Below are positions 10,057 through 55,009 of a stretch of 64,000 nt of DNA, one piece after another. Position numbers and translations under genes: made by a program. Origin of the DNA: an uncultured Planctomycetia bacterium (GTDB lineage: Bacteria > Planctomycetota > MHYJ01 > WSZJ01); contig CAVPNQ010000072.1 of assembly GCA_963706735.1 (NCBI GenBank), positions 4,932-68,931 on the forward strand. Reading direction: 5' to 3'. The notes beneath the pieces were generated by a model, which did not search any database, was not told the origin of the DNA, and was given only the letters and a program-made list of their open reading frames with translations. Each line of letters begins with the position of its first letter. Position 1 is the first letter of the stretch.

Positions 10057-11445
10057 CTACTTCAGACCGTACTTCTCGATCTTCTTGTAGAAGTTGCTTC
10101 GCGGCATATCGAGCTCTTCGGCCGTTTTCGACACGTTTCCGTCGTTCGAGCGGAGGCGTGACTCGAGGAAGAGCTTCTCGCTCATCTCCTTGAACTCCTC
10201 GTACGTCCGGCAGGCGTTGAACGGTCCCATGGGATCCGAGTCCGACGACGCCACGGCCGCGCGGGCGGCCTCGGCGAGCTGGCGCGTGCCGCCCATGGCC
10301 TTCGCCACATCGACTTCGGTGATCACGTCCCGGTCCGCGAGGATCGCCATCCGCTCGACGACGTTCTTCAGCTCGCGCACGTTCCCCGGCCACGCGTGCC
10401 CGGCCAGCCGCGTCTCCGCCGCGCCGTCCAGCCGCCGCGCCGGCAGCCCGCTCACCACGCAGAAGTCCGCGAGAAACCCCCGCGCCAGCACCGGGACGTC
10501 CGCCCGCCGCTCGCGCAACGGCGGCACCCGCACCGGGAAAACGTTCAGGCGATAGTACAGGTCCTCGCGGAACTCTCCCTTCGCAATCATCCCCGGCAGG
10601 TCCCGGTTCGTGGCCGCGACGACGCGCGCATCCACCGCCACCGTCTTCTGCCCGCCCAGCCGCCGCACCTGTCGTTCCTCGAGGACCCGCAGCACCTTGG
10701 CCTGCGCCTGGAGCGGCATATCGCCGATTTCGTCGAGGAAGAGGGTTCCGCCCCTGGCCTGTTCGAACTTCCCCGGCATCGACTTGCTGGCGCCCGTGAA
10801 CGCGCCGGGTTCGTACCCGAACAGCTCGCTCTCGATCAGCGTGTCCGGCAGCGCCGCGCAGTTGACGTCCACGAACGGCCCCTCGGCACGCGCCGACTGC
10901 TCGTGGATGAGCCTCGCAACCAGTTCCTTCCCCGATCCGTTCTCGCCGAGGATCAGGACGCGCGCCTCGGTCGTGGCGACCTTCGTGATCATCGCCCGGA
11001 CTTCCTTCATGGCGTCGCTCTCGCCCAGCATCCGCGTCCGAGACGCCACCCTCGTGCGCAGCACCCGGTTCTCCGTCGCCAGCCGCCCGTGCGCCGCCGC
11101 GTTCCTCACGGCCAGCAGCAGCCGGTCCCGGTCGAACGGCTTCTGGATGAAGTCCAGCGCCCCGCGCCGCGTCGCGTCCAGCGCGTCGTCGATCGTCCCG
11201 TGGCCGCTCATCATCACCACCGGGATGTCGATCCGCCGGTCGTGCAGCGCCGTCAGGAACTCCTTCCCGTCCATCCCCGGCATCTTCAGATCCACCAGCG
11301 CCAGGTCGAACGTGTCCCCCTCCAGCTTCTCCAGCGCCTCCTTCCCGTTCGACGCCTGCGCAGATTCATGCTTCTCGCTTGCCAGTGTCTGCGCGACCGT
11401 CTTGCGGATCGCTTCTTCGTCGTCCACGATCAGGATGCGGGGCAT
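10057..11445 (-). CDS. Sigma54-dependent response regulator (NtrC family: REC + AAA+ + Fis-type HTH)
   Basis: N-terminal REC domain (LIVDDE...D54-like DLKMPGMDG). AAA+ domain with GESGSGKE Walker A and the GAFTGA sigma54-contact motif. ESELFGYEPGAFTGA and [10 protein letters not shown] motifs. C-terminal HTH. Confidence 0.9.
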   Translation of the reverse strand: MPRILIVDDEEAIRKTVAQTLASEKHESAQASNGKEALEKLEGDTFDLALVDLKMPGMDGKEFLTALHDRRIDIPVVMMSGHGTIDDALDATRRGALDFIQKPFDRDRLLLAVRNAAAHGRLATENRVLRTRVASRTRMLGESDAMKEVRAMITKVATTEARVLILGENGSGKELVARLIHEQSARAEGPFVDVNCAALPDTLIESELFGYEPGAFTGASKSMPGKFEQARGGTLFLDEIGDMPLQAQAKVLRVLEERQVRRLGGQKTVAVDARVVAATNRDLPGMIAKGEFREDLYYRLNVFPVRVPPLRERRADVPVLARGFLADFCVVSGLPARRLDGAAETRLAGHAWPGNVRELKNVVERMAILADRDVITEVDVAKAMGGTRQLAEAARAAVASSDSDPMGPFNACRTYEEFKEMSEKLFLESRLRSNDGNVSKTAEELDMPRSNFYKKIEKYGLK

Positions 11446-33863: not shown

Positions 33864-33880
33864 CGGCACTTCCCTTGCAT
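33864..33880 (+). promoter_or_regulatory. Sigma54 (-24/-12) promoter
   Basis: cGGCACttcccTTGCAt shows GG and GC at the canonical 12-nt spacing. The -12 TTGCA ends 31 nt upstream of the regulator start codon. Confidence 0.6.
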
Positions 33881-33910: not shown

Positions 33911-35308
33911 ATGAACATCCTTGTCGTCGACGACGAAAAACTCATCCGCTGGTCGCTCAAGGAGCGCCTCACGCGCGAGGGCCACTCCGTCACGGAAGCC
34001 GAGGACGGCAAGTCCGCCCTCGAGGCCTTCCACCGCGAGACGCCCGAACTCGTGCTGCTCGACATGAAACTGCCCGACACCGACGGGCTCAGCATCCTCC
34101 GCGCGATCCAGAAGGAATCCCAGGGCGGCCCCGAAATCCCGGTCATCGTGATCACGGCCTATTCGACCGTCGATACCGCCGTCGAGGCGATGAAACTCGG
34201 CGCCTTCGACTACGTCGCCAAGCCGTTCAACATGGACGAACTCGCCATCACCGTCCGCCGCGCCCTCGAGACCAGCTCCCTCAAGCGCGACGTCCGCGCC
34301 CACGTCTCCGAGCGCCGCTCTTCGTTCGGCGTCCACAACCTCGTCGGCAAATCGAAGTCGATGCGCGACGTCATCGAGCTCGTCCGCCGCGTCTCCCAGA
34401 GCGGCGCCTCCACCGTCCTCGTCCGTGGCGAAAGCGGCACCGGCAAGGACGTCATCGCCAAGGCCATCCACTACGAGTCCAACCGCAGCGACAAGCCCTT
34501 CATGAACATCACCTGCACCGCCCTCCAGGACACGCTGCTCGAGAGCGAATTGTTCGGGCACGAAAAGGGAAGCTTCACGGACGCAAAGATGCAGAAGAAG
34601 GGCCTCTTCGAGCTCGCCAACGGCGGCACCCTCTTCCTCGACGAAATCGGCGACATGTCGCCCACGCTCCAGTCCAAGGTGCTGCGCGCCCTGGAGGAAA
34701 AGGCGTTCCGGCGGATCGGCGGCACGGTGGACATCAAGGTCGATGTGCGCGTGATCGCGGCGACCAACAAGGACCTGGAGAAGGCGATCGCCGAAGGCCG
34801 CTTCCGCGAGGACCTGTACTACCGGCTCAACATCATCACGATCCTGGTGCCGCCGCTGCGCGCCCGCAAGGAGGACGTTCCGCTGCTGGTGCAGCATTTC
34901 CTGAAGCGCTTCGCGGAGGAATTCCGCAAGGAAGTGAAGGACCTGACGAAGGAAGCGTACGACAAGCTGTCGGGGTACGACTGGCCCGGGAACGTGCGCG
35001 AGCTGAAGAACGCGATCGAGCGCGCGGTGCTGCTGGGGCAGGGGCCGACGATGGGGGCGGACGACCTGGCGCTGGGGAGGCCGGGGCCGGCATCGACGGG
35101 GGAGGAGGGCGCGAGGCTCCTGAAGCTGCCCTCGAAGGGGATCGTGCTGGAGGACCTGGAGAAGGACCTGGTGGTGCAGGCGCTGGAGCGGACGGCGGGG
35201 AACCAGACGCGGGCCGCGGACCTGCTGGGGATCACGCGGGACCAGATCCGGTACCGGATGGAGAAGTTCGGGTTGATGAAGGGCGAAGAGGCGCACCATA
35301 ACAGCTAG
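33911..35308 (+). CDS. Sigma54-dependent response regulator (NtrC family)
   Basis: REC domain, AAA+ ([14 protein letters not shown] sigma54-contact variant of GAFTGA) and C-terminal HTH. Preceded by a sigma54 promoter. Confidence 0.9.
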
Positions 35309-35342: not shown

Positions 35343-36191
35343 ATGGAACAGCCGACCGGGGTTGACGCGTACGCTCCCGCCGAGATGGCGGCGAGGGTCG
35401 AAGACACGGGGGTGAAGAAGGCCGCCCTCGGGATGGGCTCGATGCTGGCGCTGGCGGTGCTCGCCGGGGCGTTCATCGGCCTGGGCGCGGCGTTCTCGAC
35501 GGTGGCCGCGACGGACACGCGGATGGGATACGGGCCGACGAAGCTGCTCTCGGGGCTCGCGTTCTCGCTCGGGCTGATCCTCGTCGTCGTCGCAGGCGCG
35601 GAGCTCTTCACCGGAAACGTCCTGGTCATCATGGCCTGGGCGAGCCGCCGCGTGACGACGGCGCGGCTGCTGCGCAACTGGGTGTGCGTCTACGCGGGGA
35701 ACTTCGCGGGCGCCGCCGCGACGGCAGCCGCCTTCTACGCCTCTCATCGCTGGGCCGATGCCGGCGCCCAGCCCGGCGCGACGGCTCTTCGCATCGCCCT
35801 CGCCAAGTGCACCCTGCCGTTCGGGACGGCGTTCGTGCTGGGTGCGCTGTGCAACGCGCTCGTGTGCCTCGCCGTCTGGCTGTGTTTCAGCGCCCGCAGC
35901 ACGACGGACAAGATCCTGTCGATCCTGTTTCCCATCACGGCGTTCGTGGCCCTCGGCCTCGAGCACAGCGTCGCCAACATGTACTTCATCCCGCTGGGAA
36001 TGATGCTCCGGTCGGAGCCCGCGGTGCTCGCCGCGGGCGGGTGGACGCCCGACGCCCTCGCGCCGGTCGGCTGGGCCGGGCTCGCCGCCAACCTCGTCCC
36101 CGTCACCCTCGGCAACATCGCCGGCGGCGGACTCATGGTGGCCGCCATCTACTGGTACGTCTACCTGCGCGAGGGCCGTCGCAGCCCCTGA
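35343..36191 (+). CDS. Formate/nitrite transporter family channel (FocA/NirC-like)
   Basis: FNT signatures (…LSGLAFSLGLILVVVAGAELFTGN…, …LCNALVCLAVW…). Length 282 aa. Lies 34 nt downstream of the regulator. Confidence 0.8.
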   Translation: MEQPTGVDAYAPAEMAARVEDTGVKKAALGMGSMLALAVLAGAFIGLGAAFSTVAATDTRMGYGPTKLLSGLAFSLGLILVVVAGAELFTGNVLVIMAWASRRVTTARLLRNWVCVYAGNFAGAAATAAAFYASHRWADAGAQPGATALRIALAKCTLPFGTAFVLGALCNALVCLAVWLCFSARSTTDKILSILFPITAFVALGLEHSVANMYFIPLGMMLRSEPAVLAAGGWTPDALAPVGWAGLAANLVPVTLGNIAGGGLMVAAIYWYVYLREGRRSP

Positions 36192-36315
36192 GAGCGCGAG
36201 AAGCACTCGCCCTGCGGCACGCGCCACCAGCCCGTCCGGCGCGCGAGGTGGTGTGGAGGAAAAATTGTGGTTTTCGAGGCGCGCCGGACGTGCCGGCGCC
36301 GGTCGAACCGCGCGC

Positions 36316-36343
36316 CCCGACGTCGAGCCGTTACGACGTCGGG
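36316..36343 (+). promoter_or_regulatory. Perfect 10-bp inverted repeat (cccgacgtcg-N8-cgacgtcggg) in the intergenic region upstream of the globin-coupled kinase
   Basis: Read directly. Lies 125 nt after the transporter stop. Followed by two GAATTTT(T)CA-type direct repeats. Confidence 0.35.
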
Positions 36344-36462
36344 CGTGCGCGGTGAGACCGGTGACGGCGCTCGAATTTTTCACGCGCTCTGAGCGGCGCC
36401 GCGGGAATTTTCAATGCCCGCAGGCTGTGCATTCGTCCCCCGCCGGATAGAATCCGCCCGCC

Positions 36463-37674
36463 ATGCTCTCCCTGACCGATCGCGATATCCAGTCCCGCAA
36501 AGCCTTCGTGCAGCTCACCGCCGAAGACGAACGGCTGCTCCGCGAAGTCCACTCGCTGCTCTCACAGCACGCCGACACGATCATCAACCGGTTCTACGAG
36601 TTCCTCCTGTCCCACGATCGGACGCGCAGGATGCTCGAGGCCCCCGGCCAGGTAGAGCGGCTCAAGGCCCTTCAGCGCACCTACTTCAACCGCCTGACTG
36701 CGGGGAACTACGACGCCGAGTATTTCCGGGAGAGGGTCCGGGTCGGTCTCACCCACGAAAGGGTCGGGCTGCCCCCGGAGATGTACCTGGGCGCCTATCA
36801 CCGTTACTTCCAGATCGCTTCCGATGTGCTTCGCGGCGCCTTCCCGCCCGGCGACGCGCGCTACCACCGCACCGTGGCCGCCCTAGGCAAGATCATCACG
36901 CTCGACATGAGCCTCGCGATCGATTCCTACATCGACCAGGCCCACTCCACCCTCCACAACCGCAACGCCGAGCTCGTCCGCCTCCAGGGCGCCAAGCGCA
37001 TCCTGAGCGACATGATCATCCACGACCTCCAGAACCCCCTCGCCGGCATCCGCGCGTTCCTCGAGCTCCTCTCCACCCGCGAGCAGGGACTGAGCCCCAA
37101 CGAGGACGAAGCGCTCACCGAGGCCCTCCGCCGCTGCGACGATCTCGGCCAGATGATCATGAACGTCCTCCAGGTCAGCCGCGCCGAGGCGGGAAGCCTC
37201 GAGGTCAATGTCGAGAATTTCGACGTGGCGGAACTCGCGCGGCGAAGCGTCGCAGCGTTCGACCTGCATGCAGGACAGGAAGGGCGCTCAATTGAGCTGG
37301 AAGCTCCAGGGTCGCTGACCCTCCGGTCGGACCAGTCGCTTCTCAAGAGAGTGTTTTACAACCTCATCCGCAACGCGGTCAGGCATACCCCGCGCGGGAC
37401 GAAGATCCTGGTGCGCGTCACGGAGGCGGCGGAAGGGAAGGCGGAGATCTCCGTGGTGGACGACGGGCCGGGAATCCCGAAGAACGTGCAGCATCTGTTG
37501 TTCGAGCGGTACGGCGGGCAGGCCCTGCGCGAAGCGGGATTGCGGGTGGACACCGGGCTCGGGCTGTCGTTCTGCCGCTCCGCCGTGGAGGCCATGGGCG
37601 GCACGATTGCCGTCGAAAGCGACGGCCGCTGCGGGACCGCGTTCCGGCTCGTGGTCGGGCAACCGACGGTCTAG
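36463..37674 (+). CDS. Globin-coupled sensor histidine kinase (protoglobin sensor domain + HisKA + HATPase)
   Basis: N-terminal globin-coupled-sensor pattern (…INRFYEFLLSH…LKALQRTYFNRL…YFRERVRVGLTHERVGL…YLGAYHRY…). H-box IIHDLQNPL. G-boxes in the C-terminus. Confidence 0.85.
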   Translation: MLSLTDRDIQSRKAFVQLTAEDERLLREVHSLLSQHADTIINRFYEFLLSHDRTRRMLEAPGQVERLKALQRTYFNRLTAGNYDAEYFRERVRVGLTHERVGLPPEMYLGAYHRYFQIASDVLRGAFPPGDARYHRTVAALGKIITLDMSLAIDSYIDQAHSTLHNRNAELVRLQGAKRILSDMIIHDLQNPLAGIRAFLELLSTREQGLSPNEDEALTEALRRCDDLGQMIMNVLQVSRAEAGSLEVNVENFDVAELARRSVAAFDLHAGQEGRSIELEAPGSLTLRSDQSLLKRVFYNLIRNAVRHTPRGTKILVRVTEAAEGKAEISVVDDGPGIPKNVQHLLFERYGGQALREAGLRVDTGLGLSFCRSAVEAMGGTIAVESDGRCGTAFRLVVGQPTV

Positions 37675-37678
37675 ATCT

Positions 37679-38530
37679 CTACTTCGACCGCACCACGAGC
37701 ATCGGCACCGTCGCCGAACGCAGCACCTTCTCCGTCACGCTTCCCATCACCCACCGCGACGGCCCGCTGCGACCGTGCGTGCTCATCGCGAGCAGGTCCA
37801 CTCCGTGACGCTTCGTCGCGTCCAGGATCTCCGAGGCGGGATCCCCGAGCCGGATGACCGGGTCCACGGGGATGCCGGCCTGCGCGAGGTCCTTCACCGC
37901 GATCCGCACCAGCGGCTCGCCTTCGCCCGCCTTGCCCTCCGAGGTGGGCTCGACCACCCCGAGCACCAGCACGCTCGCCCCGACTGCCTTCGCGAACGTC
38001 TTCACGTACGGAAGCACCGCCAGCGACTTCTCGCTGCCGTCGATCGGGACGAGGATCTTCTTGAAGGGGATTTCCTGGACCGGCGTCCGATCGGCGCCGA
38101 CGGCGCTGTCCTTGTAGGAGCGCACCATGAGAACGGGAACCTCGCTGGCCCGCATGACTTTCTCCGCGACGCTGCCGAACACGAACCGCGAGAAACCGCT
38201 GCGGCCGTGAGTCGCCATGGCGATCATGGTCGCTTTTTCCTCCTTTGCCGCGTCGAGGATCGCGGTCGCCTCGCCGCCGACCCGGACGACACCGCGGGAC
38301 TTGACTCCCTCCTTCGCGAGCTGGCGCTCGAGCGCCGCGATGTAGCGTTCGGCTTCCGCCTTGAGGTCAGACAGCAGAGGCGCGAATTCGACCCCGGGCT
38401 GAACGGGGACGGGGACCGCTTCAAAGAGGATCACGCTGGAGTCATTCAGGCGGAGCAGCCGGCAGACCTGCCCGAGGATGGCCTCTGCGATTTCCGAACC
38501 GTCGAGCGGGACGAGGATGCGTTCGAGCAT
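37679..38530 (-). CDS. Tandem universal stress protein (2x UspA domain)
   Basis: Two …ILVPLDGSE…ATHGRSG…VLRSATVPMLVV… units. Confidence 0.85.
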   Translation of the reverse strand: MLERILVPLDGSEIAEAILGQVCRLLRLNDSSVILFEAVPVPVQPGVEFAPLLSDLKAEAERYIAALERQLAKEGVKSRGVVRVGGEATAILDAAKEEKATMIAMATHGRSGFSRFVFGSVAEKVMRASEVPVLMVRSYKDSAVGADRTPVQEIPFKKILVPIDGSEKSLAVLPYVKTFAKAVGASVLVLGVVEPTSEGKAGEGEPLVRIAVKDLAQAGIPVDPVIRLGDPASEILDATKRHGVDLLAMSTHGRSGPSRWVMGSVTEKVLRSATVPMLVVRSK

Positions 38531-38727
38531 GGCTCACCTCTTGAATTGGAAGGCCGATCAGGACTCCGGTCGACGCACCTGCGCCCGGAATATACCCGCA
38601 CAAGGTGTGCCGTGGAGTCCTGCATGGAAACGCGGCCAGCGAATCACCAACAGGGGAAAATTACGCTCTTCCCGGTAGAATCTACCTCCTGATCGGGCCG
38701 GATGCGGGGATTTCCCACTCTTCAGGC

Positions 38728-38743
38728 GGCCCTGCGTTTGCGC
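38728..38743 (+). promoter_or_regulatory. Sigma54-type promoter upstream of the USP gene
   Basis: cGGCCCtgcgtTTGCg shows GG and GC at the 12-nt spacing. The -12 GC lies ~46 nt upstream of the ATG. Confidence 0.45.
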
Positions 38744-38788
38744 TTCCGTTCATCCCCCCCTTACTCTCACTCAGCCGCGGAGGGCCCC

Positions 38789-39694
38789 ATGTACCGGACC
38801 ATTCTCGTTCCCATCGACGGCTCCACCCTGTCCGAGCACGCGATTCCCTTCGCCATCGAAATCGCCCGCCGAGCCAAGGGACGCGTCAGGCTCCTGCGGG
38901 CCCTTCCAGAGTCGCTCATCGTCACGGACATCCCCGTCTCGGTCCAGGCCTCCGCCCGCAAGCTCGCCCACGCCGAGGTCGACCGGCTCGTGAAGACCTA
39001 CAACTCGGCCGAGGTTCCCGTCGAGGCCGAAGTCCGTATCGGATTCCCCCTCGAGGAAATCAATCGCGCCGCCACCAAGGCCGACCTCGTCGTCATGACC
39101 ACCCACGGCCGCGGTGGAGTCCAGAGATGGGTCATGGGAAGCGTGGCCGACAAAGTCATCCGCCTCGCCGCGACCCCGGTTCTCGTCATTCACCCGCCGC
39201 AGAAGCGGACCCGCGCGATGGCCGAGGCAGGCGCGCTCCGCATGTTCCGCGACGCCATGGTTTCCCTCGACGGTTCTCCCCTCTCCGCCCAGGCCCTCCG
39301 CGAACTCCGCCAGTTCGCCGAAGGCGGCACCCGCATCCACCTCCTTCGGGTCGTCGCCAGCGACGCTTCCCCCGCCTCGGTTGACCTCGCCGCCAACCAG
39401 CTCAAGGACGCCGCCAGTGATCTTGTCGCCCGCGGCGTGAACGTGGTGCAGGCGGTGGCGAAGAGCGACAGCCCGGCGGAGGCGATCGTGGAGTACGCGC
39501 TGCAGAAGGGCTGCGGCGTGATCGTGATGACGACGCGCGGCGCCGGGGGGATCGAGCGGTGGATGCTGGGCGGGATCACTGACAAGGTGGTCCGGCATGG
39601 TCCGACGCCGGTCCTCGTCATCCGCGCTTCGAGGGCACTCTGGAAGGGCGGCAAGCGGCCGCTCGGCGGCAGGCGGAATATCCGGGTGATCTGA
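38789..39694 (+). CDS. Tandem universal stress protein
   Basis: GGAGGG ribosome-binding site. Two UspA units (…TTHGRGG… and …TTRGAGG…). Confidence 0.85.
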   Translation: MYRTILVPIDGSTLSEHAIPFAIEIARRAKGRVRLLRALPESLIVTDIPVSVQASARKLAHAEVDRLVKTYNSAEVPVEAEVRIGFPLEEINRAATKADLVVMTTHGRGGVQRWVMGSVADKVIRLAATPVLVIHPPQKRTRAMAEAGALRMFRDAMVSLDGSPLSAQALRELRQFAEGGTRIHLLRVVASDASPASVDLAANQLKDAASDLVARGVNVVQAVAKSDSPAEAIVEYALQKGCGVIVMTTRGAGGIERWMLGGITDKVVRHGPTPVLVIRASRALWKGGKRPLGGRRNIRVI

Positions 39695-39723
39695 GCGGGG
39701 ACGGCCCACGAGAAGAGGTTGCC

Positions 39724-40560
39724 ATGCTGAAGCACATCCTGGTCCCGCTCGATGCCTCGCCGGCGGCGGAGTCGGTGATCGACCGGCTGCTGCCGCTTCT
39801 GGCTCGCGCCGGAACGGACGTCGTGCTGCTTCACGTCGCCGAACCGCCGCTGGCCGCTTCGCTCGAGCCCGGCCGTGCGGACGATGCGCGGGCCGAGGCA
39901 CAGGGATATGTGAGGGACCTGGCGAAGCGTGTTTCGGGGAAGGGAGTGCGTTGTCGCGGGATCGTGAAGCCGGCTCCGGCGGCGGAGGCGATTGTGGCGG
40001 AGGCGGCGGCGAGGCCCAACGGGATGATTGCGATGGCGACGCACGGGCGGAAGGGTCTGGCGCGGCTGGCGTACGGGAGCATTGCCGAGAGTGTGCTTCG
40101 GGCGAGTCCGGTGCCGGTGCTGCTGGTGCGGACGGCGGGGGAGCCGAAGAAGCCCGAGCCGCTCGTGATCCGGAGGATCGTCGTTCCGGTGGATGGAAGC
40201 ACGCACGCGCTGGGGATCGCGCCGCACGTCACGGAGCTTGTCACGGCGTTTCACGCGCAGGTCACGCTCGTGCACGTCCTGCCGCCCCGGCCGGCGCTGG
40301 GGGAAACGGTGGCCCATGCAGAACGAGTCATCGAGACGGCCAAGGCTGTCTTTGCGGATGCCGGAGTGACGTGCGACAGCCTGATCAGCACGGGGGATGC
40401 GGCGGAGGAGATTCTTGAAGCGGCGGCAGGGAAGAAGGCGGACCTGATCGCCTGTTCCACGCATGGACGGACCGGGATCGTGAGGGCCGTGATGGGGAGC
40501 ATCGCGGAGAATGTGTTGCGTTCGGGCAACCTGCCGATGCTGGTGGTCCGGAGCGCCTGA
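39724..40560 (+). CDS. Tandem universal stress protein
   Basis: Two UspA units (…ATHGRKG… and …STHGRTG…). Confidence 0.85.
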   Translation: MLKHILVPLDASPAAESVIDRLLPLLARAGTDVVLLHVAEPPLAASLEPGRADDARAEAQGYVRDLAKRVSGKGVRCRGIVKPAPAAEAIVAEAAARPNGMIAMATHGRKGLARLAYGSIAESVLRASPVPVLLVRTAGEPKKPEPLVIRRIVVPVDGSTHALGIAPHVTELVTAFHAQVTLVHVLPPRPALGETVAHAERVIETAKAVFADAGVTCDSLISTGDAAEEILEAAAGKKADLIACSTHGRTGIVRAVMGSIAENVLRSGNLPMLVVRSA

Positions 40561-40701
40561 GACCGCGAGCAAAATCCTCCCTGCGGCGCACGGCACGGGT
40601 CCGACCGGCGCGCGACGAGGGATTGGGCGGTGCCGAGGCTTGAGGCGCGCGCCGACCGGACCCGCGCCGCGCGTCCTCGGTCGGGTTTTGCTCGCGGTCT
40701 C
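40559..40701. repeat. Inverted repeat with 16-19-bp arms (gagaccgcgagcaaaa / ttttgctcgcggtctc) enclosing ~110 nt of GC-rich near-palindromic sequence
   Basis: Read directly. The left arm begins inside the TGA of the USP gene. Confidence 0.55.
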
Positions 40702-40785
40702 AAGGTTCCCGGTGAGCGGCTTGCGGCTTCCGGGGAGAGGTTCAGGCCTGCGCGAGCAATCTGAGCGCGTTGTAAGCGATCGAGG

Positions 40786-40827
40786 CTGCCCATGCGCTGG
40801 CCCGGACTGCCCATGCGCTGGCCCGGA
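40786..40827. repeat. Exact 21-nt tandem duplication (tgcccatgcgctggcccggac x2)
   Basis: Read directly. Confidence 0.7.
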
Positions 40828-41250
40828 CGCGGGTGCCGTCCTGCGCGACGCGCTTGAGTTCGACGGCGTCGTGGCGCAGAAGCGCCGCGAGGACCTGGGT
40901 CATCATGTCGTCCAGAGCTTCCTTGTGGTCGACGCGGAAATCGGACAGCGTGTGCGGGCAGACCGCAACCCCGCCGAGCAGCCCATCCAGCTATGTCGGC
41001 GTGAGCAGTACCTGGTTTCTCGCCGCCCGAAGAAGCTTCGCCGGCCCTTGCTTCCTCGTGCGCTCCACCGCAGGTCTCGACTCCGCTGATTCATCGAACA
41101 GATTCGCTTCTTTCACGCGCTCTGACAGGGGGGGGGATTTCCGCGGGCGAGGGGAATTGTCCGCAAAGCGGACCTCGTCATCCGCATTTCCTCGATTTCC
41201 CGAGTGGCATCCGATTCGCGACTGTTCCGTCACCCTCTGGAGACCGTGCC

Positions 41251-41805
41251 ATGAAGCTGATTGCGTTCTGCGGACCGTCGGATTCCGGCAAGACCTGGAT
41301 GATCGAGCGCCTGGTGCGGCTCTGGACCTCGCGTGGTCTCAAGGTCGGGGTCGTCAAGCACTGCTCCAAGGGCTACCAGCTGGACCGCGAGGGGAAAGAC
41401 TCGAGCCGCTTCTGGGAAGGAGGGGCCGCGGCCGTCGCGGTCGTCGGGCCCGGCGAGTGGGCGGTCCGCCGTCGCGAACCCGAGGCCGACCCGGTTCGCA
41501 TTGCCGAAGAGGCGTTTCCCGGAGTCGACGTGGCCATCGTGGAAGGATTCCGCGACGTCGCGATCCCGCGCGTCCGGGTCTTCGGGGCGAGCGAGCTGCC
41601 CTCATGCACGGACGCGGACCACGACATCATCGCCGCAGTGTCCCGCACCCCGGGTACGGCCCAGAACATTCCCATCTTCGCGCTGACCGACGCCGACGGG
41701 CTCTCGGACTTTCTCGCACACAGGCTCGGGCTGAATCTCGCCCTCTCCACGGATCCGGAGGCCGCCGTGCTGAGACACGAAAGAGCGGGCGCTCGTCCGG
41801 CTTAG
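41251..41805 (+). CDS. mobB: Molybdopterin-guanine dinucleotide biosynthesis adapter protein MobB
   Basis: P-loop GPSDSGKT, …VVKHC… and size 184 aa are typical for MobB. Confidence 0.8.
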   Translation: MKLIAFCGPSDSGKTWMIERLVRLWTSRGLKVGVVKHCSKGYQLDREGKDSSRFWEGGAAAVAVVGPGEWAVRRREPEADPVRIAEEAFPGVDVAIVEGFRDVAIPRVRVFGASELPSCTDADHDIIAAVSRTPGTAQNIPIFALTDADGLSDFLAHRLGLNLALSTDPEAAVLRHERAGARPA

Positions 41806-43436
41806 CGCAGTCCGCCGATGCCCGTCCGCGCCGCCGCGTTCTCGAGCGGAAGCGAGATCTTCACCTCGGTCCCCTTGCCCAGCTCGCTGTCGATCTCCAC
41901 CCGCCCGCCGTGCGCTTCGATCATCCTCTTCGAAATCGCCAGCCCGAGCCCCGTGCCGCGGGTCTTGGTCGTGAAGAACGGCGAGAAGAGTCGCGGAATG
42001 TGATCCGGGGCGATTCCGCTTCCGGTATCGCGGACCCGGATGACGGCCATTCCCGGGGTCTCCTTGATGTCCACGCGGATCTCGCCGCCGTGCGGCATCG
42101 CATCGACGGCATTCTGGAGGATGTTGAAGAAGACCTCCTGGACGAGCCTGGGGTCGGCCGAAAGCATGAGTGAAGCGGGTGTGTCGCAGCGAAGAGCAAT
42201 CGTGGACATCCGCTCCTGCTGCTTCAGGATCCGCGTGACCCTGCCGAGGAGCTCGACCAGGTCGGTCGTCTGCGGCTCCGGCGTCCACGGGCGTGCGAAG
42301 ACCAGCAGGTCCCGCACCGTCTCGTCGAGCCGCTGCACCTGCGCCAGGATTTCCGACACGATTTCGCGCCGCGGGTCCGTCGAGGGAATCGCGTCCGCGA
42401 TCACCTGGATCGCCCCGCTGATCCCCGCCAGCGGGTTCTTGATCTCGTGCGCCACCGTCGCCGCCAGCTCGCCCACCGCGGCCAGGCTCTGCGACCGCAC
42501 CAGGTCCGTTTGCAGCCGCTTCACCTTCGTCATGTCCCGCAGGATCGCGCTTCGGCCCACGATCTTTCCCGACTTGTCCCGGATGGCGGTGCTTGTGATG
42601 CTCATCGCCAGCCGGCGTCCGTCGCGGGAGACGCGGACCGTTTCGTAACCCTCGAGAAACCCCTCGCGTTCGACTTCCGTGCGGATGCGGCGCAACTCGC
42701 CCGCGTCGCGGAGCTCCTCCGGGATCAGCGCTTCGATCGGCTGGCCGATGATCTCGGTCGCCGGCCATCCGAACATCCGCTCGGCGCCGCGATTCCAGCT
42801 CCGGATCAGGTCGGACTGGTCCACCGTCACGATCGCGTCCGCCGAGTTCTCGAGGATGTTCTCCAGGTGCTCCTTGCTCTTGCGGAGCTCTTCGACGAGA
42901 AGCGACCGTTCGAGGGCGACAGAGATGTGTCCGGCGACGTTGCGTGTGAAAGTGGCGTGATCGGCGGTGTAGGCGTCGCGGTGGCGGGACGAGATGAAGA
43001 GCACGCCGAAGGGGTTGCCGCGGGCGATGAGGGGGAGGGAGAGGGAGGAGAGCATGCCTTCCCGGACGATGAGACGCGTGGCCTCGGAAGTGGGGTGGGC
43101 GCGGACGTAGGCGTCGAGGTCGGGGATGATGCGGGGTTCGCCGGTGCGAAGGAGCGGCTCGAGGCTGGAACCCCGGAGGCGCGCGCTGTACCCCTCGTGG
43201 AGGAGGATCGGGCCGTCGCTGCGGCAGGCGTGGATGGTGAGCGAGTCGCGCGCGGGATCGTAGACGGACACGGCCAGCCGGTTGCACGGCAGGTGGCCGC
43301 GCATCCGCGCATAGATGGAGTCGAGGATGTCCTGGAAGCCGCGGCCGGCGTTCAGGTCCTGGACGATTTCGTTGAGGATGTCGCTGCTCACGGCTCCCTG
43401 GTCAGCTATGGAGGCACTTCCGAGGAAGCAAGCCAC
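41802..43436 (-). CDS. GAF-PAS sensor histidine kinase
   Basis: N-terminal GAF-like region. PAS (…IVTVDQSDLIRSWNRGAERMFGW…). H-box VAHEIKNPL. HATPase_c N/G1/G2 boxes. Confidence 0.85.
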   Translation of the reverse strand: MACFLGSASIADQGAVSSDILNEIVQDLNAGRGFQDILDSIYARMRGHLPCNRLAVSVYDPARDSLTIHACRSDGPILLHEGYSARLRGSSLEPLLRTGEPRIIPDLDAYVRAHPTSEATRLIVREGMLSSLSLPLIARGNPFGVLFISSRHRDAYTADHATFTRNVAGHISVALERSLLVEELRKSKEHLENILENSADAIVTVDQSDLIRSWNRGAERMFGWPATEIIGQPIEALIPEELRDAGELRRIRTEVEREGFLEGYETVRVSRDGRRLAMSITSTAIRDKSGKIVGRSAILRDMTKVKRLQTDLVRSQSLAAVGELAATVAHEIKNPLAGISGAIQVIADAIPSTDPRREIVSEILAQVQRLDETVRDLLVFARPWTPEPQTTDLVELLGRVTRILKQQERMSTIALRCDTPASLMLSADPRLVQEVFFNILQNAVDAMPHGGEIRVDIKETPGMAVIRVRDTGSGIAPDHIPRLFSPFFTTKTRGTGLGLAISKRMIEAHGGRVEIDSELGKGTEVKISLPLENAAARTGIGGLR

Positions 43437-45802: not shown

Positions 45803-46075
45803 TTAGTTGCCCGCCTGCGGAGACGGGCTCCACTCGCGGAGCACGTCGTCGATCACCCGTTCCACGAACTGTTGACCGTGCTGGGCCCAGACCCTGTGGG
45901 TGCCGGCGTAGAACGGGTCCTTGAAGAGCCGCACGAGGCGCTCCCTGTCGAACCCGTTCAGCAGGAACTCCTCGACGACCGCGCGGGTCATGTCTTCGTC
46001 CGCCTGCGGCCCGGCCGGGATCGCCATACCGACGAACTCCAGCGGGTCGTCCTGTTCGCTTTCTTTTTCCGGCAT
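45803..46075 (-). CDS. Small acidic hypothetical protein (90 aa) encoded between the alpha and beta subunits
   Basis: ORF with normal composition (MPEKESEQDDPLEFVGMAIPAG…FLLNGFDRERLVRLFKDPFY…). Tight 14-nt and 28-nt spacing to its neighbours. Confidence 0.5.
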   Translation of the reverse strand: MPEKESEQDDPLEFVGMAIPAGPQADEDMTRAVVEEFLLNGFDRERLVRLFKDPFYAGTHRVWAQHGQQFVERVIDDVLREWSPSPQAGN

Positions 46076-50529: not shown

Positions 50530-52185
50530 TTATTTCAGGATGAGCCGATACCAGGTTGTGACGGACTTCTGGCCGGCACGGTCGCCCGCGGCGCCGTCCC
50601 ATACGGCGAAGGCCATCGGGATTTCCGTCCCCGCCTTCAAGGCGATGCAGCACGGGTCCGGCGGAGCGAAGGATCGGCCCATCTGCACCGTCCAGAGCCC
50701 TTCCTTCCAGGCGCCTTTGCCGGTGACCGACTGCTTGTCCGCCGCGAGGCTCGTGAGCGTGCCGAAGCCCGCCGCGACCGCGTCCTCGACGGGGGACTTG
50801 CGGTCGGGGTTGGAGAACGGATTGCCCGCGGCGCGCCCCGACTGGTACGCGGGGTCGTGGTTCGGCATCGCCGAAGGGTTGTTCCCCTTGTTCTCGTTCG
50901 TCCTGTCGCCCTTCTCGAACGGGTACATCTCCACCGACATCCCGGGGTGAATCCCCTCGACGTCCTGCCACTTCGCGAGGTCGATCTGCCAGTCCGCTTT
51001 CCACTGCCACAGGTTTACCGGCATCTTGGCCGAGCCCATCGTGACCGGCGTGTCGATCCCTTCGAGCGCAAACATCAGGGCGACGGCATCGCGGAAGTCC
51101 TCGGCGCGGAGCGGCGCGTGATTGTCGGCGCCGTCGAGCCAGGAGAGCTGGAACGCCACGGCGCTTCCGTCGTGCGCGGCCCGGACTTTCAGGAGGCGCG
51201 GCGCGGCGATGCGGCTGAAGAGCAGCTGGAGCGGCACCTCGACGGCCGGAATCGCGTCCCATGCGGGATCGGTCGGGTCCTTGGGAAGAGCCGCGACCTT
51301 CGTGGCGGGGAGCTGGCTTCCCGACGGAAGTGCGGCGGCGAAGTGCTTCGGCGCGTCGCCCGAGAGGCTCATGACGTAGTGAACGAGGCCCCAGCGTTCC
51401 TTGTCGGACATCTGGTCGGGGCCGTAAGCGGGCATCGGCGTGCCGGAGAGACCCGTGGCAAAGCGGAGGTAGACGTCCTTGGGGGTCGAGCCGCCGCGGA
51501 AGATACCCTGCGTGAAATCGTTCGGGCGGATCGGCTGGTCCGCGTCGTCCTTGAGATCGGCGGCCGAGGGGCCGTCAGCCCGGCCGGTTTCGCCGTGGCA
51601 CTTGACGCAGCTCATCTTGATGTACATGTCCTTGCCGATGGCGCGGGACTTGTCGTCATCGGCCGGCTCAGCGGGGACGGCGAGCGACTTGCCCTGGCCG
51701 CGCTCTTTGAAGTAGTTGTAGGGCGCGTCCATGTCCGGGTCCTGGAACTGGCTGAGATCCTTGATGTAGGCGATGAGCGCCTTGCGGTCGGCTTCGGGGA
51801 AGTGTCGCCAGGCCGGCATCGCTGTGCCCGGCATGCCGTTTACGAGAACGGCCATGATGTCTTCGTCGGTGGGGAGAGCCCCGCTCTCGGTTGAGCGGAT
51901 CTTGAACTTGCCTTTGGAGAAGTCGCGTGGGCGGGGCCAGAGAAGGTAGGCCGCCGTGCCGTCGCCGAGGCCCTTGAGCCCGTGGCAGACGGCGCAATTG
52001 GCCTCGAAGAGGAATTTGCCGGTGGCGTTCGCGTCGCCGCCCGGGTCGCCGCCGGCCCCATCACCACCGAGCGCCGACGGGACCGTTTTTTGCGGATCCC
52101 GAGGCTGGCAGGCGGACAGAGTGACGATGCAGAGAGCGCAGGCGGCGAAGGCCGCCAGTTTCCAGGCGTGAGTTCGACAGGGCAT
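50530..52185 (-). CDS. Lipoprotein diheme cytochrome c fused to an EB_dh-type heme-b domain (candidate gamma subunit of the oxidoreductase)
   Basis: Lipoprotein signal MPCRTHAWKLAAFAACALCIVTLSAC. Two CxxCH motifs (CAVCHG, CVKCHG). C-terminal ~250 aa resembles the ethylbenzene-dehydrogenase gamma / DOMON-like heme-b domain (…AFAVWDGAAGDRAGQKSVTTWYRL…). Confidence 0.75.
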   Translation of the reverse strand: MPCRTHAWKLAAFAACALCIVTLSACQPRDPQKTVPSALGGDGAGGDPGGDANATGKFLFEANCAVCHGLKGLGDGTAAYLLWPRPRDFSKGKFKIRSTESGALPTDEDIMAVLVNGMPGTAMPAWRHFPEADRKALIAYIKDLSQFQDPDMDAPYNYFKERGQGKSLAVPAEPADDDKSRAIGKDMYIKMSCVKCHGETGRADGPSAADLKDDADQPIRPNDFTQGIFRGGSTPKDVYLRFATGLSGTPMPAYGPDQMSDKERWGLVHYVMSLSGDAPKHFAAALPSGSQLPATKVAALPKDPTDPAWDAIPAVEVPLQLLFSRIAAPRLLKVRAAHDGSAVAFQLSWLDGADNHAPLRAEDFRDAVALMFALEGIDTPVTMGSAKMPVNLWQWKADWQIDLAKWQDVEGIHPGMSVEMYPFEKGDRTNENKGNNPSAMPNHDPAYQSGRAAGNPFSNPDRKSPVEDAVAAGFGTLTSLAADKQSVTGKGAWKEGLWTVQMGRSFAPPDPCCIALKAGTEIPMAFAVWDGAAGDRAGQKSVTTWYRLILK

Positions 52186-52246
52186 GCAGTGCCTCCTCGG
52201 GTAGTCCCTCGCGCCGCCGGGCGCGAACGGGACTCGAGCGCTGTGC

Positions 52247-52263
52247 GCAAACTTCGCACCCGC
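52247..52263 (-). promoter_or_regulatory. Possible sigma54-type promoter for the oxidoreductase operon
   Basis: Minus strand gGGtgcgaagtTTGCg shows GG/GC at the 12-nt spacing. The start codon is ~62 nt downstream. Weak -24 region. Confidence 0.3.
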
Positions 52264-52333
52264 TGAAATCATCGAATTCGAATAACGGACAGGGAAGTCC
52301 GTGGCAATTCGCGCTGGAGGTGCGCGAATTTAC

Positions 52334-52346
52334 TTAATGTCATTAA
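52334..52346. promoter_or_regulatory. AT-rich perfect palindrome TTAATG-T-CATTAA, flanked by GCGAATTCGC palindromes, in the divergent control region
   Basis: Read directly. The only strongly AT-rich patch in the region. Lies between the two divergent operons. Confidence 0.4.
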
Positions 52347-52668
52347 CTAAAGCGCTGTGCGAATTCGCGGCGCTTCGCGGAAATAACCAGCCTGTCCCCG
52401 ACCCCAACGCAGCCTTTCAAAAAAAAATAGCCCGGCGCCCCCGACCGGCGGGATCGGAAGCGCAGGGCCGGGCGGGAGGTCCCGCCCACGACTTTCCCCG
52501 GCCCGGAGGCCAGGGAGGGGTACCGAGGGCAATCCCGACGCCAACGCAAATCCAGTTCCCCGGCTCCTACGCTTGAAGGCGCTCTCAATACTGGGAAATT
52601 TTCCGCGCCCACTGCGGACAGCTCCATGCCGTTCTTCTCGAATCCACCTTTCTGTCGCGTGTGACCCG

Positions 52669-52684
52669 TGGTCCCTCGTTTGCG
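52669..52684 (+). promoter_or_regulatory. Possible sigma54-type promoter for the cupredoxin/oxidase operon
   Basis: tGGtccctcgtTTGCg shows GG/GC at the 12-nt spacing. The -12 GC lies ~50 nt upstream of the ATG at 52734. Confidence 0.35.
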
Positions 52685-52733
52685 GGACTGCCTTCGTCCT
52701 TTTCCTCGCTCGTTCCATTTCCGGAGCTGCGTG

Positions 52734-53501
52734 ATGCCACTCAAGTTCCTCGCTGTATCCCTCGCACTGCTCGCGGCCGCCGGATGCGGCGCCCCGGCTT
52801 CCCAAGGCGGTCCTGCTTCGCCGCAAGGTTCGAAAGGCGGCGACTTCCTGTGCGATGGAAGTGCCGGGGGGAGTGCGATCAAGGGCAAGATCACCTTCGA
52901 GGGTCCCGTGCCCGAGCCCAGGAAACTGGTTGTGGACAGCGACGCCCTCTGCGCTTCCCTCCACAAGGACGGACTGCTGGCCGAGGACATCAAGGTGAAG
53001 GACGGCGCGCTCGCGAACGTCTTCCTGTGGGTCAAGAAGGGCGTGACGGGGAGCTATCCCGCGCCCGCGGAAGCAAAGATCCTCACCCAGAAGGCCTGCC
53101 GTTACGAACCGCACGTCCTCGGCGTGCAGGTCGGGCAGCCGCTCGCGATCCACAACGAAGACGAGACGATGCACAACGTGCATTCGCTTCCGAAGCTGAA
53201 CGAAGAATTCAACTTTGCGCAGACGAAGAAGGGCGACGTCGCGACGAAGAAGTTCAGCTCGGCGGAGACGATGGTGAAGTTCAAGTGCGACGCGCACGGC
53301 TGGATGAGCGCCTGGGTCGGGGTGGTGAAGCATCCGTTTTATGCGGTGAGCGCCGAGGACGGGACGTTCGAGATCAAGGGGTTGCCGGCGGGCGAGTACG
53401 TGCTGGGCGCGTGGCACGAGAAGTTCAGGGCGCAGGAACTCACGCTCAAGGTCGGGGACAAGGACACGCAGACCGCGAACTTCACGTTCAAGGCCGAGTA
53501 G
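52734..53501 (+). CDS. Cupredoxin-like (amicyanin-type C-x2-H-x2-M) copper lipoprotein, copy 1
   Basis: Lipobox LAAAGCG. Ligand set H(NVH)…38 aa…CDAHGWM. C-terminal beta-sandwich extension. 50-55% identity to copy 2. Confidence 0.7.
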   Translation: MPLKFLAVSLALLAAAGCGAPASQGGPASPQGSKGGDFLCDGSAGGSAIKGKITFEGPVPEPRKLVVDSDALCASLHKDGLLAEDIKVKDGALANVFLWVKKGVTGSYPAPAEAKILTQKACRYEPHVLGVQVGQPLAIHNEDETMHNVHSLPKLNEEFNFAQTKKGDVATKKFSSAETMVKFKCDAHGWMSAWVGVVKHPFYAVSAEDGTFEIKGLPAGEYVLGAWHEKFRAQELTLKVGDKDTQTANFTFKAE

Positions 53502-53555
53502 GCCATTCCCTGGGAATCAGCCGGGGAATCCCGGCGCATTGCGAGGAGACCGGAA

Positions 53556-53852
53556 ATGTCGGGACACGCGCAGTCGGCGGCGCCTGCAGCGCACGGAGCG
53601 TCCAGCTACAAGACCTACTGGTTTGCGTGGCTGCTGCTCCTCATCCTGACGGTGCTCATGGTGCAGATTCACAACAAGGCCCTGTTGCTCACCGGCATCG
53701 GGATCAAGTCCACGATCATCTGCCTGTGGTTCATGCACCTGAAGCACGAGTCGAAGCTGCTTCTGTTCAGCGTGGCGCTCGGATTCGGGTTCGCCGTGTT
53801 CCTGTTCTTCCTGATCCAATTTGACGTGAAGGTCCTGACGGGGATCGCGTAG
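53556..53852 (+). CDS. Prokaryotic cytochrome c oxidase subunit IV family protein, copy 1 (98 aa)
   Basis: …YKTYWFAWLLLLILTV…FMHLKHE…. Two TM helices. Paralog of the gene at 59093. Confidence 0.7.
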   Translation: MSGHAQSAAPAAHGASSYKTYWFAWLLLLILTVLMVQIHNKALLLTGIGIKSTIICLWFMHLKHESKLLLFSVALGFGFAVFLFFLIQFDVKVLTGIA

Positions 53853-54205
53853 CCCGGAATGCCCGGCGAACACCAGCCCGGCGGGGGTGCGGCATTGTGG
53901 TCGCCCCCGGAGCAGGATCAGCGGACCCGCGAGTCCGCCGAAGCGTTCGAAACGGCCGGAACTTCCGGCGCCGCTGACGCCGCAAGTCCCTTTGTCACCA
54001 AGGGGAACGGGCGTTTCCGCGCGCGGTGCGGCATCCTTCGCAACCCTTCGGTCCGTTATGGTCCCGGGTTTGCGATTTTTCCTTGCCGTTCCGAGGCGGA
54101 TGTTGTCTTGTGACCCGCCCGTAACCATGCGGCGGACCTCAAAAACCAGCGGCTCGGCTTGCCGGAAAGCACCGGGCTTTTCCCCATCCAAGGAGGACGA
54201 TTTTC

Positions 54206-55009
54206 ATGCTTAAGACACCTCTTCTCGTGGCCTCGATTGTCCTGAGCGCTCTGCTCGTGGCGGGCTGCGGCGACAGCAAGAAGCCCGATGCTAACGGCAA
54301 TACCGGTGCGGGTGGCGGCGGTGGCGAAGGCGGCGGCGGCGGCGGCGCGGTGAAGACGGCCGACATGGCCAATGGCGCGGTCGTCAAGGGCGTCATCAAG
54401 TTCGACGGCACTCCTCCGACCGAGAAGGCCCTCGGCATCGACGGCGACGACTTCTGCAAGGGCCAGCACCCGGAAGGCCTCAAGACCGAGTACTACAAGG
54501 TCAAGGACGGCAAGGTCGCCAACTGCCTCGTCTACGTGAAGGATGGCCTCTCCGGCAAGTACGCGCCGGTCAACCCCAGCCCGGTGATCGACCAGAAGGG
54601 CTGCCAGTACCTCCCGCACGTCATCGGCGTCGTTGCGGGCCAGGACGTCATCATCAAGAACAGTGACTCGATCGCGCACAACATCCATGCGCTTCCCAAG
54701 AAGAGCCAGGAGTTCAACTTCGCGCAGACGAAGGCCGGGGAAGAGACGAAGAAGTCGTTCTCGTCGGCGGAAGTGCCTGTGAAAGTGAAGTGCGACATTC
54801 ACGGCTGGATGGGCTGCGTGGTCGGGGTGTTCAACCACCCGTTCTTCGCGGTGACGGGGGAAGACGGCTCGTTTGAGATCAAGGGTCTTCCGGCCGGGAA
54901 GTACAAGCTCGAGGTCTACCACGAGAAGTTCGGGACGCAGACGGTGGATGTCGAGGTGAAGGAGAAGGAGACGAAGTCCGTCGATTTCCCGGCCCTGAAG
55001 AGCGAATAA
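54206..55009 (+). CDS. Cupredoxin-like copper lipoprotein, copy 2
   Basis: Lipobox LVAGCG. Gly-rich linker. H(NIH)…CDIHGWM ligand set. Confidence 0.7.
   Translation: MLKTPLLVASIVLSALLVAGCGDSKKPDANGNTGAGGGGGEGGGGGGAVKTADMANGAVVKGVIKFDGTPPTEKALGIDGDDFCKGQHPEGLKTEYYKVKDGKVANCLVYVKDGLSGKYAPVNPSPVIDQKGCQYLPHVIGVVAGQDVIIKNSDSIAHNIHALPKKSQEFNFAQTKAGEETKKSFSSAEVPVKVKCDIHGWMGCVVGVFNHPFFAVTGEDGSFEIKGLPAGKYKLEVYHEKFGTQTVDVEVKEKETKSVDFPALKSE

Follow-up and report, generated by a model that had tools for sequence, protein, structure and literature searches.

Divergent promoter pairs that share one upstream activator site (UAS) are known among the systems that depend on sigma-54 (RpoN), and small RNAs (sRNAs) expressed under sigma-54 control, namely Qrr1-5 (activated by LuxO), GlmY/GlmZ (GlrR), CrcZ (CbrB) and NrsZ (NtrC), form an established class. 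In Nitrospira, sigma-54-dependent regulators accompany the nxrAB loci, according to an article that summarises Lucker 2010 and Koch 2015 on the sigma-54-linked loci of the periplasmic nitrite oxidoreductase (NXR) (PMC6606698), and sigma-54-interaction regions have been drawn beside cox, nar and nxr clusters in metagenome-assembled genomes (MAGs) of Planctomycetota (PMC10732223). Here we analysed a 548-bp intergenic spacer, positions 52186-52733 of a 64-kb stretch of DNA from an uncultured Planctomycetia bacterium (the whole stretch is hereafter called the window), which lies between a leftward operon for a molybdenum (Mo) enzyme and a rightward oxidase operon. Our best explanation, to which we give a probability of about 0.55, is that the spacer works as a compound control region dependent on sigma-54 and serves three transcription units instead of two, the third being a candidate non-coding RNA of ~115 nt.

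The locus resembles the NXR loci of Nitrospira in that its Mo enzyme belongs to the type II dimethyl sulfoxide (DMSO) reductase family, has an EB_dh-type gamma subunit and is associated with sigma-54-dependent activators. In contrast to Nitrospira, where the regulator genes adjoin nxrAB, the association consists here of conserved promoter elements, the regulators being encoded 17-40 kb away; the host is moreover a non-anammox planctomycete, in which the Mo operon stands head-to-head with a haem-copper oxidase operon. With the sigma-54 (RpoN) systems that combine -24/-12 promoters and NtrC-family activators, the spacer shares invariant GG and GC dinucleotides at the canonical spacing (GG-N8-TTGC), conserved palindromic elements 60-110 bp upstream, NtrC-type regulators encoded nearby and predicted 5' untranslated regions (5'UTRs) of 39-50 nt.

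Relatives were taken from a homologous-protein search, and the same head-to-head layout was found in four other genomes, L001, L065 (= L066, from Hainich groundwater), L067 (= L068) and L076, which makes five regions with that of the window; nine further loci had another upstream context or no upstream DNA. The nearest public relatives are uncultured Planctomycetota MAGs. A scan of metagenome contigs with the flanking protein returned only relatives of <=40% identity, unfit for footprinting. The flanking protein is 86% identical to that of the window in L001, 75% in L065, 72% in L067 and 69% in L076, and the orthologous spacers measure 556-579 bp, with a mean column identity of 65% to the window. 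A sliding-window footprint over the five regions revealed six conserved blocks, listed from the oxidase side to the Mo-operon side:

52693-52664: block of the candidate oxidase-side promoter
52628-52589: block of a dyad element
52519->52424: GC-rich stretch, the strongest block by far
52353-52319: block of an AT-rich element
52263-52239: block of the candidate Mo-operon promoter
52233-52189: block of the predicted Mo-operon 5'UTR

The pattern GG-N8-TTGC is not enriched in the window overall (38 copies found, 37.4 expected), whereas the spacer holds 4 copies against 0.33 expected (Poisson P about 4e-4). Three of these four copies have counterparts at equivalent positions, with identical spacing and direction, in each of the four other regions; the -12 half reads TTTGC in 15 of 15 sites (three positions in five regions), and the gap from GG to GC is exactly 10 bp. 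The elements, and their positional conservation in five genomes, are thereby established computationally. Two of them had been pointed out in an earlier reading of the spacer (the original prediction), which described sigma-54-like elements in both directions: GGTGCGAAGTTTGC on the minus strand and GGTCCCTCGTTTGC on the plus strand are indeed there, and both are conserved in 5/5 regions. The -24/-12 elements and the features tied to them are the following:

52260->52247, minus strand: GGTGCGAAGTTTGC, candidate promoter of the Mo operon, P(Mo operon); GG and TTTGC invariant in 5/5 regions
52186-52235, minus strand: predicted 5'UTR of the Mo operon; pairwise identity 0.63-0.75 across the 5 regions
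52670-52683, plus strand: (T)GGTCCCTCGTTTGC, candidate oxidase-side promoter, P(oxidase side); GGTCC(C/T)-N4-TTTGCG invariant in the 5 regions
54059/54060-54073, plus strand: TGGTCCCGGGTTTGC / GGTCCCGGGTTTGC, apparent duplicate of P(oxidase side), 133 nt ahead of the genes for the second lipoprotein, COX2 and COX1
52559->52546, minus strand: GGAACTGGATTTGC, candidate promoter of the sRNA, P(sRNA); GG-N8-TTGC at the equivalent place in 5/5 regions
52529-52542, minus strand: TGGCGTCGGGATTGC, an overlapping -24/-12-like match, missing from the other four regions

For P(Mo operon), the C of the -12 half precedes the start codon by 61-66 nt in the five genomes, and we predict a transcription start site (TSS) at about 52235, with a 5'UTR of 50 nt. 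At the 5' end of the predicted Mo mRNA there is a stable hairpin, GUCCC..GGGAC (GUCCCGUUCGCGCC..GGCGCGAGGGAC, 52233->52204 on the minus strand), of which a GCGC..GCGC core is kept in the other genomes. For P(oxidase side), the corresponding distance is 51-82 nt in the five genomes; the predicted TSS is at about 52695 and the predicted 5'UTR extends over 39 nt to the ATG at 52734. Downstream, TGGTCCCGGGTTTGC is near-identical to the element at 52670-52683, and GGTCCCGGGTTTGC is almost the same as the sole oxidase promoter of L065, L067 and L076 (CGGTCCCGGATTTGCGA). P(sRNA) points the same way as the Mo operon and stands upstream, at a distance of 329-373 nt from it in the five genomes; its predicted TSS is at about 52534. 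The overlapping match TGGCGTCGGGATTGC is probably due to chance.

Sites of the same kind were also found outside the head-to-head layout. Homologous Mo operons that lie behind unrelated genes carry GG-N8-TTGC within 200 nt upstream of the cytochrome c/EB_dh gene (chance ~0.06 per locus at the window-wide rate of the pattern): TGGCACGCGATTTGCA in L075 (-93) and TGGCACGACACTTGCG in L078 (-60) are perfect TGGCAC-N5-TTGC sites, and similar ones stand in L073 (-183) and L002 (-149). Since homologous operons in other neighbourhoods carry such sites, sigma-54 control looks clade-wide for the Mo operon. Within the window, 7 of the 11 GG-N7-TTTGC sites are upstream of genes, and canonical promoters of the form GGCAC-N5-TTGCA are found outside the spacer. 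By inspection, the sites of L075 and L078 and two window promoters (9946 and 33865) agree almost perfectly with the extended consensus TGGCACG-N4-TTGCW.

Several features of the spacer and its surroundings weigh against a sigma-54 assignment. By inspection, the three spacer promoters match ~8/12 specified positions of TGGCACG-N4-TTGCW, and their -24 halves read GGTCCC, GGTGCG and GGAACT where the consensus is GGCAC. No rpoN gene lies within the 64-kb window. The locus further departs from canonical sigma-54 systems in that no IHF consensus (WATCAANNNNTTR) is visible, no match being found by inspection on either strand of 52260-52360, and in that the regulator encoded nearest to the Mo operon (33911-35308) has GSFTDA where GAFTGA is canonical. 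The organism is an uncultured MAG and the comparison comprises only five genomes.

These moderate matches to the extended consensus, together with the chance frequency of the pattern over the window as a whole and the absence of rpoN from it, would fit an explanation in which GG-N8-TTGC has nothing to do with sigma-54, the elements belonging to another promoter type and the conserved blocks being repressor or activator sites or structural elements of the DNA; planctomycete promoters are poorly characterised. We consider this explanation very unlikely. Against it stand the exact spacing that GG and TTGC retain at three positions across the five genomes, amid drifting flanks, and the near-perfect TGGCAC-N5-TTGC sites before distant homologues; no sigma-70-like site was found in 51900-54400, and two sigma-54 activators are encoded nearby. 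Because the elements are positionally conserved and near-consensus sites precede distant homologues, the sigma-54 reading is well supported computationally, and we infer that sigma-54 is the best assignment for the three elements.

The original prediction had recognised two divergent promoters, and the third, P(sRNA), precedes the block at 52519->52424. The RNA predicted from it has the following parts:

52419-52534, minus strand: candidate sigma-54-dependent sRNA, ~115 nt, proposed from its fold, conservation and promoter-terminator anatomy
52516->52495, minus strand: hairpin 1, with an invariant CCCCUCCC at its 5' side
52487->52470, minus strand: hairpin 2
52469->52429, minus strand: predicted terminator hairpin with a 17-bp stem, then U9 at 52427->52419

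The conserved part, ~95 nt long, shows the highest conservation in the spacer, with an identity of 0.7-0.95. With it comes an invariant CCCCTCCC, located 25 nt after P(sRNA) in three regions and 45 nt after it in L067 and L076, where the added length folds into one more hairpin at the 5' side. The minus-strand RNA folds with -74.5 kcal/mol (z = -3.86), and none of 200 shuffles folds equally well. A terminator scan independently flagged a terminator-like site within the last stem, and the hairpin followed by a T-run is present on the same strand in 5/5 genomes; an intrinsic (Rho-independent) terminator is thus predicted at 52469->52419. The A9 run noted in the original prediction is present at 52419-52427, but it is not a free-standing A-tract: with the last hairpin and U9 on the minus strand, it corresponds to the terminator tail of the sRNA candidate.

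The block is not coding. No open reading frame (ORF) is shared across the five regions and 1-nt indels break the frame, which excludes a coding role; the mechanical ORF at 52301-52576 is spurious. It does not appear to be a known RNA either: with Rfam 15, the 64 kb contain no match that reaches the gathering score, and 52150-52780 gives no match even when E <= 5 is allowed; a riboswitch, whether of the Moco family or another, was rejected on these grounds. Searched with a covariance model of the five copies, 281 kb of related loci (23 sources) yielded no additional copy, the syntenic spot being the only one.

The consensus structure comprises 29 pairs, in which 99.3% of the cells are paired, compared with 35-61% for slid-partner controls; compensatory changes affect two of the pairs, and five vary between G-C and G-U only. 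Against an sRNA, it must be said that 22 of the 29 pairs never vary and that the control shuffles match the observed values in 20-149 of 500 cases; with five sequences and 22 invariant pairs, the support from covariation is weak. In L001, L067 and L076, the opposite strand gives a fold of almost equal quality, and the long, conserved and single-stranded stretch that typifies a base-pairing seed is missing from the RNA. The chief argument for an sRNA is the conservation of the block combined with its promoter-terminator anatomy.

Two of these observations, the conservation of primary sequence even in the stems (22/29 pairs invariant) and the similar folding of the opposite strand in three genomes, would also be expected if the block acted as DNA and were not transcribed, either as a cluster of protein-binding palindromes or as a dispersed REP-like repeat. 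The latter form is contradicted by the copy number, with one copy in the window and no other across the 281 kb of related loci. Both forms are opposed by the T-run, which in 5/5 genomes comes after the last hairpin on a single strand, by the -24/-12 element that precedes the block at a fixed distance, and by the fact that every one-sided change keeps G-U pairs on the minus-strand RNA. We regard a DNA-level element as the least probable of the explanations that we weighed.

The main rival of the three-unit reading is a cis-acting one: the GC-rich block would control the Mo operon as its leader or attenuator, with a distal Mo promoter at 52559->52546 and, in the hairpin with its U-tract, a conditional terminator, riboswitch-like or controlled by a protein. 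The block does lie upstream of the Mo operon and in the same orientation in 5/5 genomes, the sequence conservation of the terminator arms (0.8-0.95) is unusually strong for a plain terminator, and the RNA shows no obvious single-stranded seed. However, the terminator is located 235 nt before the start codon, and a separately conserved -24/-12 promoter and the AT-rich element intervene; neither the minimum-energy nor the centroid folds make an alternative, anti-terminator pairing evident, and the negative Rfam search quoted above included the Moco riboswitch family. We therefore hold an attenuator to be unlikely and retain an sRNA with its own promoter and terminator as the preferred reading of the block.

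How the three promoters would be activated is suggested by further elements of the spacer, some of which had been described in the original prediction:

52589-52628: conserved element between divergent promoters, candidate shared UAS; identity 0.52-0.67
52319-52353: AT-rich element TAGTTAA-N5-TTAAGTA(A/T)TT with the core TTAATGTCATTAA; identity 0.60-0.72
52306-52370: GCGAATT(C)GC palindromes, with the perfect 9-bp inverted repeat AATTCGCGC/GCGCGAATT at 52306-52330 and TGCGAATTCGCG at 52359-52370

Conserved elements with dyad symmetry thus stand at UAS-like distances: one, at 52589-52628, within a divergent promoter pair, and the other, TTAA-N5-TTAA, at about -105 from the predicted Mo-operon TSS. 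The first consists of GGGAAATTTTCC (52593-52604) overlapping TCCGCGCCCACTGCGGA (52602-52618), in the form TTCCGCG..GCGGA / GGAA-N3-TTCC. It is framed by the divergent promoters P(sRNA) and P(oxidase side), with a distance of 109-121 bp between their GG dinucleotides in 5/5 regions. Trained on the four other genomes, a weight matrix gives the site of the window a score of 28.7 bits, when shuffled sequences give maxima of 10.9+/-2.8 and at most 20.3. We conclude that 52589-52628 is likely the best candidate for a UAS shared by P(sRNA) and P(oxidase side). Two results count against this role: the matrix finds no other site above the shuffled maximum in the window, and neither GGAA-N1-3-TTCC nor GRAATTYCCCAC occurs above chance at the other promoters of the window. 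The looser form TTCCGCG-N3-8-GCGG occurs 7 times in the window (2.3 expected), and three copies (33848, 52601 and 54015) stand directly before -24/-12 elements; as a lead, this recurrence is only suggestive.

The second element lies in the AT-rich patch. The GC content of 52250-52349 is 0.47, the lowest between 50000 and 55000, and the palindrome TTAATGTCATTAA (52334-52346) is exact, both in agreement with the original prediction; it is the sole TTAA-N5-TTAA in the 64 kb, where 0 are expected. The core is kept as TTAA-N5-TTAA, within a longer TAGTTAA-N5-TTAAGTA, in 4/5 regions. This element is likely to be a candidate site for an activator, or for a DNA-bending protein, of the Mo promoter; it does not fit the IHF consensus. 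The GCGAATT(C)GC repeats (GCGAATTCGC), which had been counted as three palindrome copies, are present and clustered, but they are not conserved. GCGAATT itself occurs 10 times in the window, which is the chance level, and four of the ten copies lie within 63 bp (52306-52368). The stretch at 52359-52370 aligns with L001 alone (pairwise identity <0.1 across the five regions) and is missing from L065, L067 and L076; even L001 lacks the perfect 9-bp inverted repeat and has the palindromes only in fragments. The GCGAATTCGC repeats are lineage-specific.

In the original prediction, the AT-rich palindrome and the GCGAATTCGC repeats together formed one enhancer that served two divergent sigma-54 promoters and so co-regulated the Mo and oxidase operons. 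Both of these promoters are real candidates, the AT-rich patch is unique in the window and partly conserved, and enhancer-binding proteins can work at a distance and in either orientation. Yet the patch is ~330 bp from the oxidase-side promoter, with a conserved unit of promoter, RNA and terminator in between, which makes it unlikely as a UAS for both promoters; in addition, the GCGAATTCGC repeats are missing in 3 of the 4 orthologous regions, and the oxidase promoter has a conserved element of its own 60-90 bp upstream. A single enhancer built on the patch is, in our view, quite unlikely. The idea of one enhancer for two divergent promoters nevertheless probably holds, for another pair than the one proposed: P(sRNA) and P(oxidase side), around 52589-52628. 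The related motifs GGGAATTT/GAAATTCCCCAC, said to recur upstream of other sigma-54 promoters, are at the chance level (19 against 13+/-4), as is the case with the weight matrix. The listed features themselves were all found in their places by sequence check. The original prediction is thus largely correct as an observation and half right as an interpretation: elements and promoter pair were misassigned, and the candidate RNA gene was missed. Co-regulation of the Mo and oxidase operons is plausible.

Taken as a compound region of three units, the spacer would work as follows. RpoN holoenzyme would use the three -24/-12 sites. The leftward promoter at 52260->52247 would drive the operon of the type II DMSO-reductase-family (NXR-like) enzyme, which would be served by the separate site at 52319-52353, and the rightward promoter at 52670-52683 would drive the genes for a cupredoxin-like lipoprotein and the oxidase. 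The third promoter, at 52559->52546, back-to-back with the rightward one and ~110 bp away from it, would drive the ~115-nt minus-strand non-coding RNA, which would end at U9. One NtrC-type activator bound at 52589-52628, perhaps one of the two regulators encoded in the window, would fire both the oxidase operon and the sRNA; with the activator shared, the sRNA would be made together with the oxidase operon. The sRNA terminator may also insulate the Mo promoter from upstream transcription, and the RNA itself would act in trans.

The candidate resembles Qrr, GlmY/GlmZ, CrcZ and NrsZ in having its own -24/-12 promoter and an intrinsic terminator, in its intergenic position next to genes of a pathway that may be under its control and, presumably, in being driven by a two-component activator of the NtrC type. 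It differs from them in its lack of homology (no Rfam match) and in showing no evident Hfq-type seed or A/U-rich site besides the U-tract; so far, it is confined to five related uncultured Planctomycetota genomes. A mode of action is suggested by the anti-Shine-Dalgarno, C-rich sRNAs, among them the alphaproteobacterial CcsR/cuckoo RNAs with their CCUCCUCCC motif and RsaE with its UCCC motifs. In a similar way, the invariant CCCCUCCC at hairpin 1 is complementary to GGAGG-type ribosome-binding sites, for example the GAGGAGG of the adjacent operon, and could pair with them. In contrast to the C-rich sRNAs, half of CCCCUCCC is predicted to be paired in hairpin 1, and by inspection it can form only 5 contiguous bp with the neighbouring Shine-Dalgarno (SD) sequence. 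Target prediction by unrestricted duplex folding yielded full-length duplexes, which are meaningless in so GC-rich a sequence, and a search for GGGAGGG-type sites found no conserved target of the sRNA. A full-text literature search combining Planctomycetes, sigma-54 and small RNA found nothing relevant. We tentatively propose, as a possibility well short of the three-unit reading in likelihood, that the ~115-nt RNA represents a new family of sigma-54-dependent riboregulators, co-induced with the haem-copper oxidase through a common enhancer and tuning the expression of the adjacent NXR-like electron-donor module.

The genes and signals next to the spacer, and a further ORF of the Mo operon, are:

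50530-52185, minus strand: gene 1 of the Mo operon, dihaem cytochrome c fused to an EB_dh (gamma-subunit-like) domain (Pfam, NCBIfam)
52185 and 52198->52192, minus strand: ATG and SD (GAGGAGG) of Mo-operon gene 1, from the sequence
45803-46075, minus strand: conserved ORF of ~90 aa between the molybdopterin and iron-sulfur subunit genes, also present at L065 11172-11444
52734-53501, plus strand: gene 1 of the oxidase side (ATG 52734), lipoprotein with a cupredoxin-like ligand pattern and a CarboxypepD_reg-like C-terminus

After gene 1, the Mo operon encodes a 327-aa protein that received no assignment, the 1179-aa molybdopterin subunit, the product of the 90-aa ORF, for which no Pfam match was found, a 4Fe-4S subunit and a NarJ-like chaperone. 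The enzyme belongs to the type II DMSO-reductase family and scores under all NCBIfam equivalog cut-offs, so that 'NXR-like' names here a type of enzyme and assigns no substrate; the 'nitrite/nitrate metabolism' of the original prediction was an assumption. On the oxidase side, the plus-strand genes encode, in order, the lipoprotein, a small membrane protein, a paralogous lipoprotein (54206-55009), COX2, COX1 and COX3-like proteins. The lipoproteins of the oxidase operons (52734-53501, 54206-55009, L065:3644-4444 and L067:3612-4421) have an invariant H-N-x-H ... C-D-x-H-G-W-M. These residues resemble the ligands of type-1 copper (cupredoxin) sites, while Pfam reports only the CarboxypepD_reg-like C-terminus, and the lipoproteins may be electron carriers that link the Mo enzyme to the oxidase. 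An extra module, found in the window (53502-54205) and in L001 (about 4240-4672) and missing from L065, L067 and L076, comprises a COX4_pro-like small membrane protein (53556-53852), the second sigma-54-like promoter and the second lipoprotein.

The window encodes two response regulators with Sigma54_activat and HTH_8 domains (10057-11445 and 33911-35308), which bears out the two NtrC-family regulators of the original prediction; the GAFTGA loop is intact in the former. Genes in their vicinity encode kinases of the protoglobin (histidine kinase) and GAF-PAS types, a FocA/NirC transporter and Usp proteins. A comparison with the regulator adjacent to the Mo operon of L002 was tried as a way of picking the acting regulator; both window regulators are ~40% identical to it, so that the comparison gives no choice between them. 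In L002, a DDE transposase gene (4129-5349) lies directly upstream of the Mo operon, replacing the divergent oxidase region, and the NtrC-type regulator gene is at 34-1458. Near-consensus sigma-54 promoters accompany both window regulators. The first, AGGCACTCCATTTGCA (9933-9946, minus strand), is just downstream of regulator 10057-11445 and upstream of the next minus-strand ORF; the second, CGGCACTTCCCTTGCA (33864-33879, plus strand), is directly upstream of the NtrC-type response regulator gene 33911-35308, a position that suggests autoregulation. Sensing and stress genes are clustered at 35343-43436, next to the Mo operon; they encode a FocA/NirC-type transporter, a histidine kinase with a protoglobin domain, three tandem-Usp proteins and a GAF-PAS histidine kinase; one Usp gene is preceded by a sigma-54-like site, GGCCCTGCGTTTGC (38728-38741).

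Sigma-54 control of respiration and sigma-54-dependent sRNAs are both already established, and our result is therefore useful and not surprising in kind. Non-anammox Planctomycetota with NXR-type enzymes are represented by metagenomes only, and the control of their respiration is undescribed. The conserved head-to-head layout of NXR-like and oxidase operons supplies candidate regulatory parts with their coordinates, namely three promoters, a possible enhancer and an undescribed sRNA, and would extend the association of sigma-54 with NXR from Nitrospira to another phylum. If the tentative proposal of a co-induced riboregulator is true, the RNA would balance the input and output of electrons in uncultured, possibly nitrite-oxidising, non-anammox Planctomycetota.

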